Source: a virus. From it: 64,000 bases of DNA. Below the pieces are notes generated by a model, which was not told the DNA's origin, did not search any database, and worked only from the letters and a program-made list of their open reading frames with translations. The number at the start of each line of letters is the position of its first letter. Positions within the stretch are counted from its first letter, which is position 1. The DNA lies in IMG/VR virus record IMGVR_UViG_3300010354_000001, positions 49,975-113,974 of that record; one strand, 5' to 3'. A program made the translations under genes and the position numbers. Below are positions 8,449-31,529 of this stretch, one piece after another.

Positions 8449-8937
8449 TCATGTGCCTACCTTCTCCTTACCGCCTAAACTAATCATCCGTATCTCCCAA
8501 GTATCCTGTAACTTCATTACTACTGAACCAAAAGCAGGAGACTTGGCATTAGCCCCTATACCACTTTCAAACTTTATACGCCCATCTGGAATGAACAACT
8601 TGCCCCCTCTAGACATGCCGCAAAACCTTTTAGTGGTTATGAACTCTATAGGAAATAATACATATATTTCATTCTTTGCTTGGTTGTAGGTTTCCCAAGC
8701 TTTTTCCATAAATTTATGTTTGATGGTAAATGGTGGATTTATCCAAATTCTTTTATATGTCGTCCAGTCCTTACTTAAGCCATCAGTGTCTATAGTGTCG
8801 AAGTTTTCAATCCCGAACTCTTTAGCTTTCTCTTTAGTGGTAGCTGGATCATAATCAAATACACCAAACTGATCAACAAACCATTTAGGCGTATACCACT
8901 CATTATTTTTTGTAAACTCTACTAAACCTTTAGCCAT
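8449..8937 (-). CDS. Phage N6-adenine DNA methyltransferase (Dam_phage type)
   Basis: EWYTP, FDYDPA, DGL..DW, IWINPPF, GRIKF. Confidence 0.85.
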   Translation of the reverse strand: MAKGLVEFTKNNEWYTPKWFVDQFGVFDYDPATTKEKAKEFGIENFDTIDTDGLSKDWTTYKRIWINPPFTIKHKFMEKAWETYNQAKNEIYVLFPIEFITTKRFCGMSRGGKLFIPDGRIKFESGIGANAKSPAFGSVVMKLQDTWEIRMISLGGKEKVGT

Positions 8938-9628
8938 AATATTCTGCCTCGTCTGCCAATAAATCTGCCCTTCTTACTGTTATTAGAAAATCATTAATTA
9001 ACTCTAAGTCCGCCTTTTTATCGTTTACATAATCCCTAAAGTCTAATAATAAACCTTCATAGTAATTACATAAATTTACTGCTTCTCCTTGAGTATAGTC
9101 TTTAGCTTTTCTTATGTCAAGTAAATTTTTATAAACTTCTGTACCTTTAAAGTCAATTATATACTCGCCGTGTCTTAAGTAATGCAGTGCTTGGTAAGTT
9201 ACTCTAAGCCATGCAGAGGTATATTTTCTAGCTTTCCTGTCTTTATTTAGATCCCAGTCTCCATGCAATAATTTATTTTTTTGATTCTTAGCGTACCCTA
9301 AATGAGAGTTAAGAAGAAGTTTTGGGTTTATTATGTGTGGTAGCAAGTTTCTTAATACAGTGCCAAAATATGTTTTAACTTCTATTGGGGCGACAAACAC
9401 CTCTAAAATGGTAGGGTTATTTTGTAGGGCCATAGATAAGAAATGTTTTAACTCCCATGCTGTATTATCTTCGTTGCCTTCTATCCAGCTAGTGTTTGCT
9501 GGTTTATTGCCTACGCTTAATAATTCTCTTGTAGGAGTTGTGAATACTGCTCTATAGTCATAGTCACTGTTTTCATCAGCTAACCCATGTGCCCTAGAGC
9601 CTACTAATACTTTTAATATTTCTGTCAT
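8930..9628 (-). CDS. Pol-beta-superfamily nucleotidyltransferase (RlaP/YcgL/NrdC.11-like)
   Basis: VGSRAHGL....SDYDYRAVF, NPTILE. Confidence 0.85.
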   Translation of the reverse strand: MTEILKVLVGSRAHGLADENSDYDYRAVFTTPTRELLSVGNKPANTSWIEGNEDNTAWELKHFLSMALQNNPTILEVFVAPIEVKTYFGTVLRNLLPHIINPKLLLNSHLGYAKNQKNKLLHGDWDLNKDRKARKYTSAWLRVTYQALHYLRHGEYIIDFKGTEVYKNLLDIRKAKDYTQGEAVNLCNYYEGLLLDFRDYVNDKKADLELINDFLITVRRADLLADEAEYYG

Positions 9629-10851: not shown

Positions 10852-10906
10852 TTGTTTCCTTTTAGTTAAATGTTAGCACACTTTGGATTTTTTTGCTAAA
10901 AAATAC

Positions 10907-10963
10907 AGCAGGCATCAACGTGTTAGATTAAAAGTCTAGTGTTGTTTTTGCTGTGAGCCTGCT
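10907..10963 (-). ncRNA. Y-like RNA 3 displaying a tRNA-Lys(UUU) anticodon stem-loop mimic
   Basis: AGCAGGC-TC-ACAGCA...AT-GCCTGCT closing stem; internal TAGA-CTTTTAA-TCTA hairpin. Confidence 0.7.
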
Positions 10964-10994: not shown

Positions 10995-11072
10995 AGCTAC
11001 TGGTAGGATTTGAACCTACGACCTCCTCGCCCATAAAATATGCAAGGTGCTCTACCTCTGAGCTACAGTAAC
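10995..11072 (-). tRNA. tRNA-like gene with aberrant 13-nt anticodon loop (isotype undetermined)
   Basis: GTTACTG/CAGTAGC acceptor, GCTC-AGAGGTA-GAGC D arm, GTAGG-TTCAAAT-CCTAC T arm; CCTTG-CATATTTTATGGG-CGAGG anticodon arm; no CCA. Confidence 0.75.
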
Positions 11073-11080
11073 GTGATTAC

Positions 11081-11198
11081 ACCAGTCATTTTGTCTACAG
11101 ACGCCTTACCTCTTGGCTACCCTTGTTTTACGAAGGAGTTGGATTTGAACCAACGATACTCTGTCCCTAATAGATGTTTTTTGTGCTGTTAGACTGGT
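11081..11198 (-). ncRNA. Y-like RNA 2 with circularly permuted tRNA module (YrlA-like topology)
   Basis: ACCAGTC-TA-ACAGCA...AT-GACTGGT stem; order T arm (GTTGG-TTCAAAT-CCAAC), closed acceptor hairpin, D arm (TA-GCC-AAGAGGTAA-GGC); ACAGA/TCTGT stem. Confidence 0.8.
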
Positions 11199-11208
11199 TG
11201 AGTGAGAC

Positions 11209-11336
11209 TGAAGACATTTTGTTGTTTTTTGATTTGCCTTACCGATCGGCCACCACTCCTTGCGGAATGGGTTGGATTTGAACCAACATACACATCTTGT
11301 TTTTGTTTTTGTTTGTTGTGTTGCTGTCTGTCTTCA
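11209..11336 (-). ncRNA. Y-like RNA 1 with circularly permuted tRNA module (YrlA-like topology)
   Basis: TGAAGAC-AG-ACAGCA...AT-GTCTTCA stem; T arm, CCATTCC-GCAA-GGAGTGG acceptor hairpin, D arm TG-GCC-GATCGGTAA-GGC. Confidence 0.8.
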
Positions 11337-11344
11337 AAGAGAAT

Positions 11345-11459
11345 CGGACTTGACTCTCAGCTTCGCTGAGGGAGATTATCGGCTTCACAGAGTCTGCTTT
11401 TACTCTCGTATGAGTAAGTAGTCTTATTAACTCTCCACCTACGCCCATCCTAGGCGTAT
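11345..11459 (-). ncRNA. Orphan TnpB omegaRNA scaffold, copy C
   Basis: Near-identical to 37429-37544 and homologous to the tnpB 3' end; terminal hairpin replaced by CTCAGC-GAA-GCTGAG but AAGTCCG end kept. Confidence 0.75.
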
Positions 11460-12910
11460 GTTTTAATTATAGCATACTTTTCATCATTTACTATATTTTC
11501 CACTAAAGATTCTGGATTTGCATCAGCTTCTAATACATATTTCATCACTGAAGGTGAGTACCCAGAAATTAACTGAACATTTTTATCTTTACTTAAAGCT
11601 GGCATGTTTCCTGTACGCCCACTGACGTTCCAAAATACTACTTTAGGCATAGCATAGCCTGAAGCTCTAAATAAATCTTGTATATGCTCAAAGTTGGTTT
11701 TGCTTTTATTGGCTACATCAAACTCCATATCAGAGATTATTAATATGCTTTTAGGCATTTCTGATTCTGGAGAATTATGCTGTTTAGCTCTTCCTAGTAA
11801 TAACTCAAATACTTTAGTTAAATCAGTGTTATAGCTCCAATTAGCCTTTCTTAAAGCATCTACTTTTTCAAGTAAAGTGCCTTCAGGAATAGTAAAGAAA
11901 GCTGGATTCTCACTGAAAGTGCAAACTAAGTTTTTAAAGTCTCCTACTAATCTTTCTGCTAAATAGATACCTAGTCCGACAGATACATCCATAGGTTCTC
12001 CTGCCATAGACCCAGATACATCACACACTACCAGAGTAGATGATGCTTTTCCTTGTAGATAGTCTGGTAAAGCTTTCCATTGGGCATCTGCGGTTGCAGG
12101 ATCTTTATCAGTAGCTTTGACTAGATCAGAAGGAAATAATACTGAGCTATTTATCTTCTTTTCTCCTTTAACTACTGCTTCTAAATACCCGTTAAACCTC
12201 TCCTCTGAGTGTTTTCTGAACGCTTTAGAGTAGTTGCTCATGGCCTTGGAAGGAACATGCTCGTATTTTATCTCATCCCACTTCTTAGCTGACATTTGAG
12301 TCTCTACTACTTTAGTATTAGCTGCTAGTTTCTGTCTGTAAGCTTTCGGCCCGCCTGCCTGCTCTGTTAGTTTCTTTCTTAGCTTAGGATATTTTTTAGA
12401 CTTCTCCCTAGGTAGCCACTTGAAAAGTAAACTGTCAGTTGCTTCGCCAAAAGCTTCTTGTATATGTTTAAGAACTACAAGCTTAGTAAAATAGTGAGTA
12501 GTATCGCTCTCGTAGAGATCGAATAGATAATCCCATCTTGTGAAAGAGACTATGTTGTCTACGTTATTGATAATCGCACTATCGCTGACTACTCTTACTA
12601 TATCCTCTGAGTTTATCTGGCATTGGGTAGTTTCGTGTAAAGTAGCTAAGTAGTTAAGGGCCAGTTTAAAAAATCTTCTCTCTCCTAGTCCTCCCCGAAT
12701 AGCTCCTGCCCAAAAAATTAACTTAATAGTCTTTTCTCTGTCGAATTTGTAAGCTTTATCTATTAATGCAGTTATATCTACATCGCTCATCTTCCTAGAG
12801 GCTCCTGCTAGGAACACAAAATCCACTAAGGGGTTGAAAGATGATTTATTTGTTACAGCACCATTGTCTGTGTGGCCTGTGTTAGTTAAATTTTTGATTA
12901 GATTATTCAT
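11450..12910 (-). CDS. Ro60/TROVE-like helical-repeat + vWA protein (DUF2828-type)
   Basis: TDNGA, IRGGLGERRFF, KWLPRE, VVETQMS..KW.EI.YEHVPSKAM; vWA MIDAS CDVSGSM, IISDMEFD, VVFWNV. Confidence 0.85.
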   Translation of the reverse strand: MNNLIKNLTNTGHTDNGAVTNKSSFNPLVDFVFLAGASRKMSDVDITALIDKAYKFDREKTIKLIFWAGAIRGGLGERRFFKLALNYLATLHETTQCQINSEDIVRVVSDSAIINNVDNIVSFTRWDYLFDLYESDTTHYFTKLVVLKHIQEAFGEATDSLLFKWLPREKSKKYPKLRKKLTEQAGGPKAYRQKLAANTKVVETQMSAKKWDEIKYEHVPSKAMSNYSKAFRKHSEERFNGYLEAVVKGEKKINSSVLFPSDLVKATDKDPATADAQWKALPDYLQGKASSTLVVCDVSGSMAGEPMDVSVGLGIYLAERLVGDFKNLVCTFSENPAFFTIPEGTLLEKVDALRKANWSYNTDLTKVFELLLGRAKQHNSPESEMPKSILIISDMEFDVANKSKTNFEHIQDLFRASGYAMPKVVFWNVSGRTGNMPALSKDKNVQLISGYSPSVMKYVLEADANPESLVENIVNDEKYAIIKTYA

Positions 12911-15865: not shown

Positions 15866-18034
15866 TTAAAATATTGATACCGATTGTAAAATTTGGCTCC
15901 AAACCTTCTCTACAAAATTACCTCCTTCTAAACCTTCAAACTGTTCTTGTGTGTAAGTCAGTAAGAAGCTTTTAGTTATTGGTAGATCGTTATACTTAGT
16001 TAATACTTCTTCTCTAGAAATCTTATCCCAGTTGCCTTTTTTATATATCTCTCTAAGCACTCTAATGTCTTTATAGATGGGAAGTTTAACTTTTAGAAAC
16101 TGACCTTCAGAATCTTCTAAGACGAAACCTTCGTCTAGCGAGTCTTTGGATCTCTCTATTAGCTTAGTCAATTCTGTAACAGTATTAGCTGTAAATACTT
16201 TAGTCTTAGGCTTAACTCCTATTGCTTTTGCTATAGATTTTACTTTCTCATAAGGCTCCCTGATAAACTCTAAGGTGTTATGCACTATATCCAGTAATAC
16301 TAGATGAGCTTTGTCGTACTTGACTATATGTGGATCTCGCACTGGGTCTATAACCTCAAACACAAAAGTAGTATTGGTGTCTTTAACATACTTAGTTAAG
16401 AACTCTACATCTAAGGTAGCGTGCAAAATGTCTTTTAAGTATTCTGAAAAATCAGAACTAGGGGAAGTTTTAGAAGTTATAAATAATTTATCTTTTTCAT
16501 GATCGTAACTAACTAAGCCTAAAAAACCATTCTCTTTAGTAAATACTTGTACTGGGTAAGTTAAGCTAGTTAGTTCTAATCCACGCTCTCCTAGATTAAA
16601 GAACTTCTCGTATCCTCTGGCTACTAATTTATTAGTTTTGTTGTTTATGAATAATCCTCTTGTTTTTATAGTTACTGAATCCCAAGATTTATCATAAAAG
16701 GCTTTTCTGGAAAAAGAATAAGAGTCTATATGATCGTATGTTTTCTTATTTATAAGTTTGCGATTTATATAGCTCTCTAAACTTTTTAGGAACTCTGGAA
16801 TATTCTCCTCTTTGCTCATAGGTGCTTTTGGGTTGTGGTATTTGATTATCTCTTGCCTATTTACATCATAAACTGAAAGATATCCTCCATGCTCTACAGA
16901 AGACTCTAAGCATACTGCACCATAATCAGTTATATAGCTATCATTACTCATGTTTCTGTGTCCGAATACTTGAGTAAAGCAAGTAAGTTCAGAACTGTGC
17001 CCATGGGGGTATAATTCCCTACCTAAACGCATATTTATACCTTTAGGGGTATAGTTATAGCCTTTTACCCCAGTCCACAAGTGTGCTGAAGGTTTTAATA
17101 CTATATCGTAGAAATTCTCTAGGTTCTGTTTCGTATCTACCCCAGCGTGAGTCACCAATATATTATTTCCCTCCTCTAACTGGACTACACAAGCATCGTA
17201 TAGTTTCTTTAGGAAATCTCTTATAGATTTTTTAGTTATCCCTGCTATTTTAGGTAGTGTTACGTTATTAAATGTACCTGATCTTGCTTTCTTGCCCATA
17301 CAGTAGTCTCTTAGATGTAGTTCGTGATTCCCCATTAATAGAGTTACGTTAGGCTTATCTGCTAATTCCATCATTCTGCGAAGCACGTAATTCTCATCAT
17401 CGCCACGATCTAAGTAGTCTCCTACAAAAACGTAATGAGTACTATCATCAAATTCACTTAAAAGTTTTTCTAGAGGTTTTCTACATCCCTGTATGTCGCC
17501 TACTATTAAAACCTTAATACTGTGCCTTTCGTACCTTATGCAAGGAATAAACCTGTTGGTCAAAAAATATGTATACAGAGTTTCTTTTAGAGTTTCCCCC
17601 TTAATGTGGTTATGATTATTTACAGCCTCATACCTTTCTTTCTGCCTATTTACCACTGATTCAGGAACGCTGTGTATTCCTCTAGTGGTATTATCTACCA
17701 GTGGAGTATTCCCAAAATCTAATACTAGAGTGTCATATAAATAGTTATCAGCTAATTCTTTAAACGGCTTCATGTCACTTTCTTTAGTGAATGTTGCATC
17801 TAATATAATTAGCTGCCCTTCATGCATTCTATATTCTACAGCTTCTTTAACTATAGCCCAGATAGATTTATCCATTCCCTGAGAGATAGTAGTTCTATCT
17901 AGTTCTACGTTATGTGTTACCCCTGCTACTGCATGTCTTATTTTATCAGGGCTTATTGTGTAGTCCTCATAGCCTTTAACGTAAGTGCTTTTACCTGTGC
18001 CTGAGACACCTCTTAAAAATATTAATAGTCTCAT
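15866..18034 (-). CDS. RNA end-healing/sealing fusion: polynucleotide kinase + metallophosphoesterase + Rnl1-type RNA ligase
   Basis: GVSGTGKST P-loop, LDATF; GDIQG/GDYLDRG/GNHE/THAG; RGLF, RGYEKFFN, KENG, FVFE, EGFVL, LKVK. Confidence 0.9.
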   Translation of the reverse strand: MRLLIFLRGVSGTGKSTYVKGYEDYTISPDKIRHAVAGVTHNVELDRTTISQGMDKSIWAIVKEAVEYRMHEGQLIILDATFTKESDMKPFKELADNYLYDTLVLDFGNTPLVDNTTRGIHSVPESVVNRQKERYEAVNNHNHIKGETLKETLYTYFLTNRFIPCIRYERHSIKVLIVGDIQGCRKPLEKLLSEFDDSTHYVFVGDYLDRGDDENYVLRRMMELADKPNVTLLMGNHELHLRDYCMGKKARSGTFNNVTLPKIAGITKKSIRDFLKKLYDACVVQLEEGNNILVTHAGVDTKQNLENFYDIVLKPSAHLWTGVKGYNYTPKGINMRLGRELYPHGHSSELTCFTQVFGHRNMSNDSYITDYGAVCLESSVEHGGYLSVYDVNRQEIIKYHNPKAPMSKEENIPEFLKSLESYINRKLINKKTYDHIDSYSFSRKAFYDKSWDSVTIKTRGLFINNKTNKLVARGYEKFFNLGERGLELTSLTYPVQVFTKENGFLGLVSYDHEKDKLFITSKTSPSSDFSEYLKDILHATLDVEFLTKYVKDTNTTFVFEVIDPVRDPHIVKYDKAHLVLLDIVHNTLEFIREPYEKVKSIAKAIGVKPKTKVFTANTVTELTKLIERSKDSLDEGFVLEDSEGQFLKVKLPIYKDIRVLREIYKKGNWDKISREEVLTKYNDLPITKSFLLTYTQEQFEGLEGGNFVEKVWSQILQSVSIF

Positions 18035-31245: not shown

Positions 31246-31311
31246 GACAGGATTTGAACCTGCGGTATCGGGGTCACAGCCCGACGCCTTAGACCACTAG
31301 GCGACATGCTG
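31239..31311 (-). tRNA. tRNA-His(GTG), atypical (no G-1, A73, no encoded CCA)
   Basis: CAGCATG/CATGCTG acceptor, TCGGG-CTGTGAC-CCCGA anticodon arm, GCAGG-TTCAAAT-CCTGT T arm. Confidence 0.85.
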
Positions 31312-31346
31312 GCCTCTGAAGATAGTTAAATTATACCATCTTTAAG

Positions 31347-31529
31347 CTACTTCTTTGAAATTAAGGCTATAATTGCTGTAAGTGCCAGTAGCCCCATACC
31401 TACAGCATATGGAATCAGCACTCTATGGGAATAGTCGAAATCAGTACACAAATTTATCCACATGGATACCACTACAGTAAATAGCACTGATATTGCTATG
31501 CCTATCGAACTTACTGACACGCTACACAT
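31347..31529 (-). CDS. Small 2-TM membrane protein (start uncertain)
   Basis: Two hydrophobic helices. Confidence 0.5.
   Translation of the reverse strand: MCSVSVSSIGIAISVLFTVVVSMWINLCTDFDYSHRVLIPYAVGMGLLALTAIIALISKK

Follow-up and report, generated by a model that had tools for sequence, protein, structure and literature searches.

A small phage RNA encoded next to a DUF2828 gene as a probable mimic of the tRNA-Lys(UUU) anticodon arm

Localization and architecture of the RNA

The subject of this analysis is a small non-coding RNA gene of a phage whose genome (113,974 bp, 36% G+C; complete and bounded by direct terminal repeats) is available as IMGVR_UViG_3300010354_000001. The analyzed stretch of 64,000 nucleotides (nt), further referred to as the window, corresponds to positions 49,975-113,974 of this record. 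The RNA gene is localized on the minus strand of the window, at positions 10963..10906 (approximately 58 nt, including a 3' G), about 0.5 kb downstream of a gene encoding a 486-amino-acid DUF2828/DUF7788 protein (12910..11450, minus strand), and it belongs to an array that follows this gene on the same strand. We consider it highly probable that the RNA is a minimal member of a widespread family of phage RNAs composed of a constant handle and a variable cargo, and that its cargo imitates the anticodon arm of tRNA-Lys(UUU).

All parts of the RNA are encoded on the minus strand. Read from 5' to 3', it begins with AGCAGGC (10957..10963), the 5' strand of a 7-bp closing stem (P1), which pairs perfectly with positions 10907-10913. 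This is followed by the conserved single-stranded part of the handle, i.e., a two-base spacer UC and the ACAGCAA box (10948..10956); four A residues in total separate ACAGCA from CAAC (10941..10944), which is the 5' strand of a second helix (P2) and pairs with GUUG at 10916-10919. The putative anticodon-arm mimic (10923..10940) consists of an A at the position corresponding to residue 26 of a tRNA, CUAGA, the 7-nt loop CUUUUAA (10928-10934), and UCUAA. Three unpaired bases, CAC, then lead to the 3' strand of P2 (together 10916..10922), an assignment based on the sequence, the geometry of relatives and the alignment to a family model described below. The last part (10906..10915) comprises AU, the 3' strand of P1 (GCCUGCU) and the conserved 3' G, which the model alignment also covers, and its end reads CUGU. 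The tail UAUUUUUU (10898..10905) adjoins this G and, as read from the sequence, is together with P1 a possible intrinsic terminator of the array.

An earlier note on this locus had described a 57-nt non-translating RNA with an ACAGCA frame, a CAAC/GUUG stem and the hairpin UAGA-CUUUUAA-UCUA. All of these elements can be read from the letters of the minus strand, with two refinements: the conserved 3' G at 10906 belongs to the RNA, and the anticodon-like stem is composed of four Watson-Crick pairs and a C.A at 27:43, the latter being common to 12 of 58 relatives with a Lys-type cargo. The non-translating character was borne out as well, since the RNA is devoid of an acceptor stem, D arm and T arm, has room for a single hairpin, and was called as a tRNA at 10906-10963 neither by ARAGORN nor by the Rfam tRNA model.

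The hairpin alone is unremarkable (RNAfold z = -0.69 against shuffled sequences). The heptamer CTTTTAA has 87 copies in the 113,974-bp genome, five of which are closed by at least four pairs. As for the whole layout (a 7-bp stem, two bases and ACAGCA, ending with AT and the complementary 7-mer), exactly three copies were found genome-wide on both strands, compared with an average of 0.5 copies in shuffled genomes. All three are localized in one intergenic array and each has a different stem sequence: AGCAGGC/GCCUGCU in the RNA described here, and UGAAGAC/GUCUUCA and ACCAGUC/GACUGGU in its two sisters.

The RNA family and its cargo

Relatives of the RNA were scanned for with a pattern composed of ACAGCA, 4-30 bases and GACTTTTAATC. 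At least 116 stretches were obtained, and about 60 among the matches listed were RNAs of 56-76 nt with a perfect closing stem and a common general layout. A covariance model (R1) was then built from 48 RNAs of other phages, with the window excluded, and it matched 10963..10906 over the full length (model positions 1-63 of 63) with 51.8 bits and an E-value of 1.9e-11, which is rough owing to a shortened calibration. This was the sole significant match within the 64 kb, the next-best having E = 1.

When 134 relatives were realigned to the model, P1, P2 and the anticodon-like stem were paired in 99.9%, 82.5% and 94.1% of cases, respectively. Every pair of the three helices, including all seven of P1 and all pairs of P2, changes on both sides across this set, and the covariation score reached 0.772, compared with at most 0.12 when the partners were slid by 1-3 columns; it should be stressed that a model-fitted alignment leans towards the structure of the model itself. 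Within the anticodon-like stem of the Lys-type relatives, the pair 29:41 appears as AU (38 cases), UA (15) or CG (3), and 28:42 as UA (44), AU (8) or CG (4).

ACAGCA is invariant in the alignments, but all of the aligned sequences were retrieved by searches demanding it. Three conserved features were required by no search, i.e., the 3' G, the A after ACAGCA and the geometry of the unpaired bases. The G follows the closing stem in 179 of 198 minimal relatives, among which CUGU is the commonest ending (65/198), and the A, which was demanded by no search for the loci of the ACAGCA...GACTTTTAATC scan, is present in 185 of them. The arrangement of one unpaired base on the 5' side and three on the 3' side of the anticodon-like stem was found in 23 of 58 Lys-type RNAs, compared with about two expected from shuffles; the base preceding the stem is nearly always A, and the RNA of the window shows the 1/3 geometry exactly. 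Moreover, unrelated viral contigs have the same handle next to DUF2828 homologs whose identity is only 32-38%. In the literature searched (DUF2828, phage Ro60/Y RNA, anticodon decoys or mimics, ACAGCAA), no published description and no Rfam model of this phage RNA family were found.

There is good support for the view that the cargo imitates the anticodon arm of a tRNA. The claim of the earlier note that CUUUUAA is the exact loop of tRNA-Lys(UUU) agrees with all 20 of 20 genuine phage tRNA-Lys(UUU) genes from the same loci, and anticodon-like 7-mers, which that note had suggested looking for in homologous arrays, are indeed common: 7-nt loops occur in 100 of the 134 relatives, 97 of them with U33 and a purine at position 37. 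Almost every triplet found at this place of the loop exists as a real anticodon (UUU in 60 cases, GUU in 8, UGA in 7, GAU, GCU and UUC in 3 each, plus others).

As the set of 134 relatives is biased towards Lys by its retrieval, two less biased samples were drawn. An anticodon-free pattern returned 112 stretches, about 19 of which were loci already retrieved via the Lys pattern; nearly all of these carry UUU (an estimate from the overlap) and two contain an additional UGA RNA. Among the newly retrieved loci with a closed handle, GUU (8), GCU (3) and UGU (3) were found along with others, and the triplet spectrum of the closed-handle loci differs from that of chance matches without a closed handle. 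The second sample, retrieved with the handle only (AGGATGNTAACAGCAA), contained 57 minimal RNAs, including CUUUUAA (16), CUUGUAA (3-4) and CUUCUAA (3) loops. In this sample, otherwise identical scaffolds (L074:580-641 and its relatives) differ only in the middle base of the anticodon, which gives UUU, UGU or UCU. Similarly, the loops of the near-identical handle RNAs L174:272-330 and L160:2682-2739 are distinguished only by U35 or G35 (UUU versus UGU). Such switches of the anticodon on identical scaffolds argue that the triplet itself sets the specificity.

An intact tRNA-Lys(UUU) gene is present alongside the mimic in at least 20 of 52 loci. In L009:1436-1533, as well as in L011, L012, L013 and L158, there is a near-whole tRNA-Lys(UUU) body with D, anticodon and T arms, in which the ACAGCAA handle replaces the acceptor stem, and the RNA at L005:2116-2208 is comparable but bears a Thr(UGU) arm. 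The form found at L009:1436-1533 suggests how the minimal mimic arose.

The Ro60-shaped DUF2828 protein and the remainder of the array

The product of the gene at 11450..12910 (minus strand) was assigned to DUF2828/DUF7788 with Pfam E-values of 1e-47 and 1e-37. A PDB sequence search with this protein gave no match. An AlphaFold model of it was obtained (predicted local distance difference test score 88.9, predicted template modeling score 0.87), and in a Foldseek search the twelve best matches of the model were all Ro60/TROVE proteins (E-values from 1e-8 to 2e-4, 12-17% identity), among them those of frog, human, Deinococcus and the Thermus phage phiLo, with unrelated von Willebrand factor A (vWA) domains placed lower in the list. 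DUF2828 proteins sharing 71-98% identity with that of the window exist; the metagenome and viral scans gave no relatives above 41% identity.

The genomic coupling of the Lys-type RNA to DUF2828 is strong. Among 50 viral records with a Lys-type RNA, 40 have a DUF2828 gene, and so do 16 of the 17 that are at least 90% complete, compared with 710 of the 50,697 phage records overall. The RNA probably forms a particle with the DUF2828 protein, in analogy to the Y RNAs and Ro60. Minimal RNAs directly adjoining DUF2828 genes of other phages include a group with a UCAGCAA box and CUUGUAA, the loop of tRNA-Thr(UGU) (L161:311-372, L007:2848-2909, L185:1785-1846, L016:10-71, and L019:2920-2980), and others with Glu(UUC), Gln(UUG) or Ser(UGA) loops and with the box variants ACUGCAA and UCGGCAA.

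The resemblance to Y RNA/Ro60 systems, especially to the YrlA of bacteria and mycobacteriophages and to Yrl1/Yrl2 of phiLo, concerns both components. In each case a small RNA has paired ends forming a stem beside a conserved motif, which is protein-binding in Y RNAs and is predicted to be so here (PMC4201824; PMC12135203). The RNA gene shares its strand with an adjacent gene for a protein of the Ro60 fold (a HEAT ring with a vWA domain), and the RNA has a variable module mimicking a portion of a tRNA. Y RNA/Ro60 has been proposed to act as a tether or bait, and Ro60/Yrl of phiLo was suggested to hijack the host PNPase (PMC4201824; PMC12135203). There are, however, clear differences. The protein analyzed here belongs to DUF2828/DUF7788 in Pfam and not to TROVE, and it resembles Ro60 in fold only. 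The box is ACAGCAA, whereas the Ro60-binding motif in the terminal stem region of Y RNAs, GNCGAAN0-1G/CGAA (PMC4201824), is absent from 10906-10963, and YrlA imitates the tRNA elbow (T, D and acceptor parts) without an anticodon, while the cargo described here is an isolated anticodon arm.

At the sequence level, the phage handle also strikingly resembles the Class I RNAs of dictyostelids. Among the Rfam matches up to E = 10 there were neither Y RNA families nor the Class I RNA family, which we take to be RF01414. Class I RNAs likewise measure about 60 nt; a short covarying stem joins their ends, the middle is variable, the 3' end reads CUGU, and all five near-invariant positions (T3, C6, C9, A10, A11) of the 11-nt motif next to their 5' strand are present in GCUCACAGCAA (PMC7919456). 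They differ in having been reported only from Dictyostelia, with the RRM protein Rnp1A/CIBP as a partner, a developmental role and no tRNA mimicry described (PMC7919456).

In the array, the DUF2828 gene is followed by a structured repeat element, the sister RNAs RNA1 (11336..11210) and RNA2 (11197..11081), a tRNA-like gene (11072..10995), all on the minus strand, and the Lys-type RNA as the third handle unit. The sister RNAs share the handle and are the only other copies of this architecture in the genome. Their cargo is a circularly permuted tRNA elbow, arranged in the order of a T arm, a loop-closed acceptor-like hairpin (with a GCAA loop in RNA1) and a D arm; as in YrlA, there is no anticodon and no CCA, and long A/C-rich linkers flank the cargo. 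The linkers following the ACAGCA box on the minus strand (10945-10956 in the Lys-type RNA and 11290-11327 in RNA1, e.g., CAACACAACAAACAAAAACAAAAACAAG in the latter) contain runs of A-A-N triplets. The tRNA-like gene, placed between RNA2 and the Lys-type RNA, has normal acceptor, D and T arms (53.6 bits with the Rfam tRNA model), a 13-nt anticodon loop and no encoded CCA, and was classified by ARAGORN as Ile(UAU). A conserved pairing of the handle RNA with an odd tRNA-Ile(UAU)-like gene was considered and rejected, as the genes of about 92 nt found beside some relatives differ in kind from 10995-11072. These, called as tRNA-Ile(UAU) by ARAGORN in tRNA clusters (L144:517-608, L107:650-745, L040:12174-12265, L072:8248-8339, and L083:6852-6943), have a long insert with CAGAUAA or CAGAUUA and an encoded CCA end, and are unrelated to the tRNA-like gene of the window.

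The structured element at 11340-11458 (minus strand; about 80-110 nt) begins within the last codons of the DUF2828 gene. Three further copies, 84-99% identical, occur elsewhere in the genome and show compensatory changes in the first hairpin; the element has a weak, sub-threshold resemblance to RAGATH-18 (21.8 bits). In the Rfam scan of the window, only two tRNAs reached the threshold; relaxed searches added only the weak matches to RAGATH-18 and to AgvB (the anti-GcvB small RNA, RF02702), the latter scoring 22.7 bits against a threshold of 56 and resting on the C/A-rich linker and the U tail. At 31308-31388 (minus strand), the sequence CUGGCAC-UU-ACAGCAA occurs directly upstream of tRNA-His, and its possible partner GCCAG overlaps the start of this tRNA. 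The family model matches this sequence weakly (12.7 bits, E = 1), and it is possibly a fourth handle RNA of degenerate or atypical form.

The phage carries four tRNA-type genes and no tRNA-Lys. Nearby genes encode RlaP (8930-9628) and, about 5 kb from the RNA, a kinase/phosphoesterase/Rnl1-ligase fusion (15866-18034), which is closest to the fusions of Brochothrix and Staphylococcus myoviruses. No DNA similarity of the array to known phages was found. Since no promoter was predicted inside the array on the minus strand, the simplest reading is that the array is co-transcribed with DUF2828 and then processed.

Proposed function and alternative explanations

Phage T4 repairs PrrC-cut tRNA-Lys with Pnkp and Rnl1, and tRNA-Lys(UUU) is the classic substrate in this interplay. 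The phage analyzed here resembles T4 in having a kinase-phosphatase-Rnl1 ligase gene 5 kb from the RNA. The T4 system, however, acts on a real tRNA, and few other phages with Lys-type RNAs have an Rnl1- or RtcB-type ligase. The earlier note had raised the possibility that the RNA is recycled by a phage Pnkp/ligase; as a general feature this is not supported, with Rnl1 found in 2 and RtcB in 1 of the 17 near-complete Lys-type genomes. Genes of the PF09414 ligase family are present in 12 of these 17, a figure that has no baseline for comparison.

Another system worth comparing is that of the T5 tRNAs acting against PARIS, which share with the family the tRNA identities (Lys UUU, Thr UGU, Asn GUU), the location in phage tRNA clusters and the setting of an arms race with an anticodon-arm nuclease (PMC11464382; PMC12409363; PMC10264068). 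The T5 tRNAs are complete and decoding; they are protected from cleavage by substitutions, which in tRNA-Lys are U39A and A41C, and they take the place of the host tRNA that is lost, whereas the RNA of the window cannot decode. Targets of the PARIS effector AriB are the tRNAs Lys(UUU), Thr(UGU) and Asn(GUU), which it cuts between positions 40 and 41 in U36-A-A-U-C|A41, it does so independently of base modifications, and it is through U39A and A41C that the resistant tRNA-Lys of T5 escapes it (PMC12409363). In the RNA of the window this region reads U36-A-A-U-C-U41, so that, in terms of sequence, U39 and C40 of the recognition site are kept. The commonest cargo anticodons of the family (UUU, GUU, UGU) overlap the AriB targets.

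On balance, we lean towards an explanation which, taken as a whole, would work as follows. The handle common to all members (the 7-bp closing stem, two bases, ACAGCAA and the 3' G) would dock on the Ro60-shaped ring of the DUF2828 protein, and the cargo, an imitation of the tRNA-Lys(UUU) anticodon arm set on a short spacer helix, would be shown to a factor that recognizes the tRNA-Lys anticodon arm. The likeliest such factor would be a tRNA-cutting defense nuclease of the host, similar to PrrC or PARIS AriB, or another cutter of U-rich anticodon loops. The RNA could compete with this nuclease or trap it, and the tRNA pool would be spared. A decoy role, which the earlier note had also envisaged, is made plausible by the overlap between the anticodon spectrum and the targets that have been published for PARIS AriB and PrrC; nevertheless, the action of the RNA as a nuclease bait is, judging from its sequence, a tentative proposal to which we attach well under even chances. 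Slightly more speculative still is a generalization, according to which the DUF2828 ring and interchangeable handle RNAs might constitute a programmable bait, where each RNA would show the anticodon arm of one tRNA (Lys UUU here; elsewhere Thr, Asn, Arg, Glu, Gln or Ser) and capture or saturate host tRNA-cutting immune nucleases, with a one-base change of the anticodon being sufficient for retargeting.

Several observations weigh against this explanation. AriB also needs the D-loop and other tRNA contacts (PMC12409363), and both the D loop and the other contacted parts are absent from the RNA of the window. The anticodon spectrum is fitted about as well by enzymes modifying t6A37 or U34 and by lysyl-tRNA synthetase. 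Moreover, most of the Lys-type RNAs were retrieved with the loop or with GA...UC fixed, which makes the conservation of those letters partly circular. A stem-free pattern, TACAGCAA-N9-24-CTTTTAA, was swamped by chance matches and yielded three real RNAs, two of them with AA/UU and not GA/UC. Finally, among the small cargoes of RNAs that immediately adjoin DUF2828 genes, Thr(UGU) and not Lys is the most frequent.

The alternative that survives best, although we regard it as unlikely, is that the mimic recruits or titrates a housekeeping tRNA-binding protein (lysyl-tRNA synthetase, the U34 enzymes MnmA/MnmEG, the t6A37 enzymes TsaBDE, or the ribosome), with DUF2828 as a scaffold, and that host translation or tRNA modification is retuned in this way in the course of infection. 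In its favor, most cargo anticodons end with U36 followed by A37-A38 (UUU, GUU, UGU, GCU, GAU, CAU, CGU, GGU), which is the hallmark of ANN-reading tRNAs to which t6A37 is added, and the cargo triplets UUU, UUC and UUG constitute the thiolated-U34 set. A further precedent is YrlA, a group of Y RNAs that serve tRNA modification enzymes as substrates (PMC4201824). The switching of anticodons within one scaffold, however, fits the retargeting expected in an arms race better than the titration of a shared enzyme.

It is rather improbable that the RNA is a sentinel, cleaved in its loop by a host nuclease, whose cleavage would alter the DUF2828 particle, signal RNA damage and activate or guide RlaP and the kinase-phosphatase-Rnl1 ligase. 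The placement of the array among RlaP and the kinase/phosphoesterase/Rnl1 fusion is consistent with such a role, as is the bacterial precedent, in which Ro60/Y RNA genes reportedly share an operon with RtcB and this operon is said to respond to damaged tRNA. The linkage to repair genes is not general, however, given the counts of Rnl1 and RtcB in the near-complete Lys-type genomes, and most family members are localized in tRNA arrays and not in repair clusters.

A much less probable explanation is that 10963..10906 has no role other than intrinsic termination of the operon formed by DUF2828 and the RNA array, and that its Lys-like loop arose by chance in an AT-rich hairpin. The presence of GUAUUUUUU after the closing stem, the low hairpin z-score and the four other CTTTTAA hairpins of the genome would suit it, but the model derived from other phages matches the RNA at E 1.9e-11, relatives are found inside tRNA arrays with further genes downstream, and a T-run at the post-stem position is present in approximately one third of relatives (60/179). 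A simple terminator scan made no call at the UAUUUUUU tail. The closing stem and GUAUUUUUU may nonetheless also terminate the array, in addition to another role of the RNA. Least credible of all is a decayed tRNA-Lys gene remnant with no function of its own: a descent from tRNA-Lys is suggested by L009:1436-1533, with its D arm, Lys anticodon arm and T arm in the handle, but compensatory changes have preserved the structure in many phages that are not related to each other, contrary to what decay would leave, intact tRNA-Lys genes co-occur, and the length and geometry are uniform.

Cleavage of tRNA is emerging as a major bacterial defense, with PrrC, PARIS, retron effectors, Cas13 and Schlafens as examples, and the known phage answers to it are the repair of cut tRNA and the supply of resistant replacement tRNAs. 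If the proposed display of the anticodon arm to a host nuclease is true, it would constitute a third and new answer, i.e., a ribonucleoprotein bait showing just the targeted anticodon arm, and an RNA-based anti-defense system of an undescribed kind. The handle-plus-cargo design makes the system easy to manipulate. Even if the decoy idea is wrong, the family is a class of non-coding viral RNAs that is large, well structured and, it seems, not yet published; it has a clear protein partner, to which it is coupled in genomes and which it presumably binds. If the idea is right, it would provide a function for the widespread phage DUF2828 (710 phage records) and for many unannotated small genes in phage tRNA clusters, and an explanation might also follow for the related Class I RNAs of social amoebae, whose function is unexplained.

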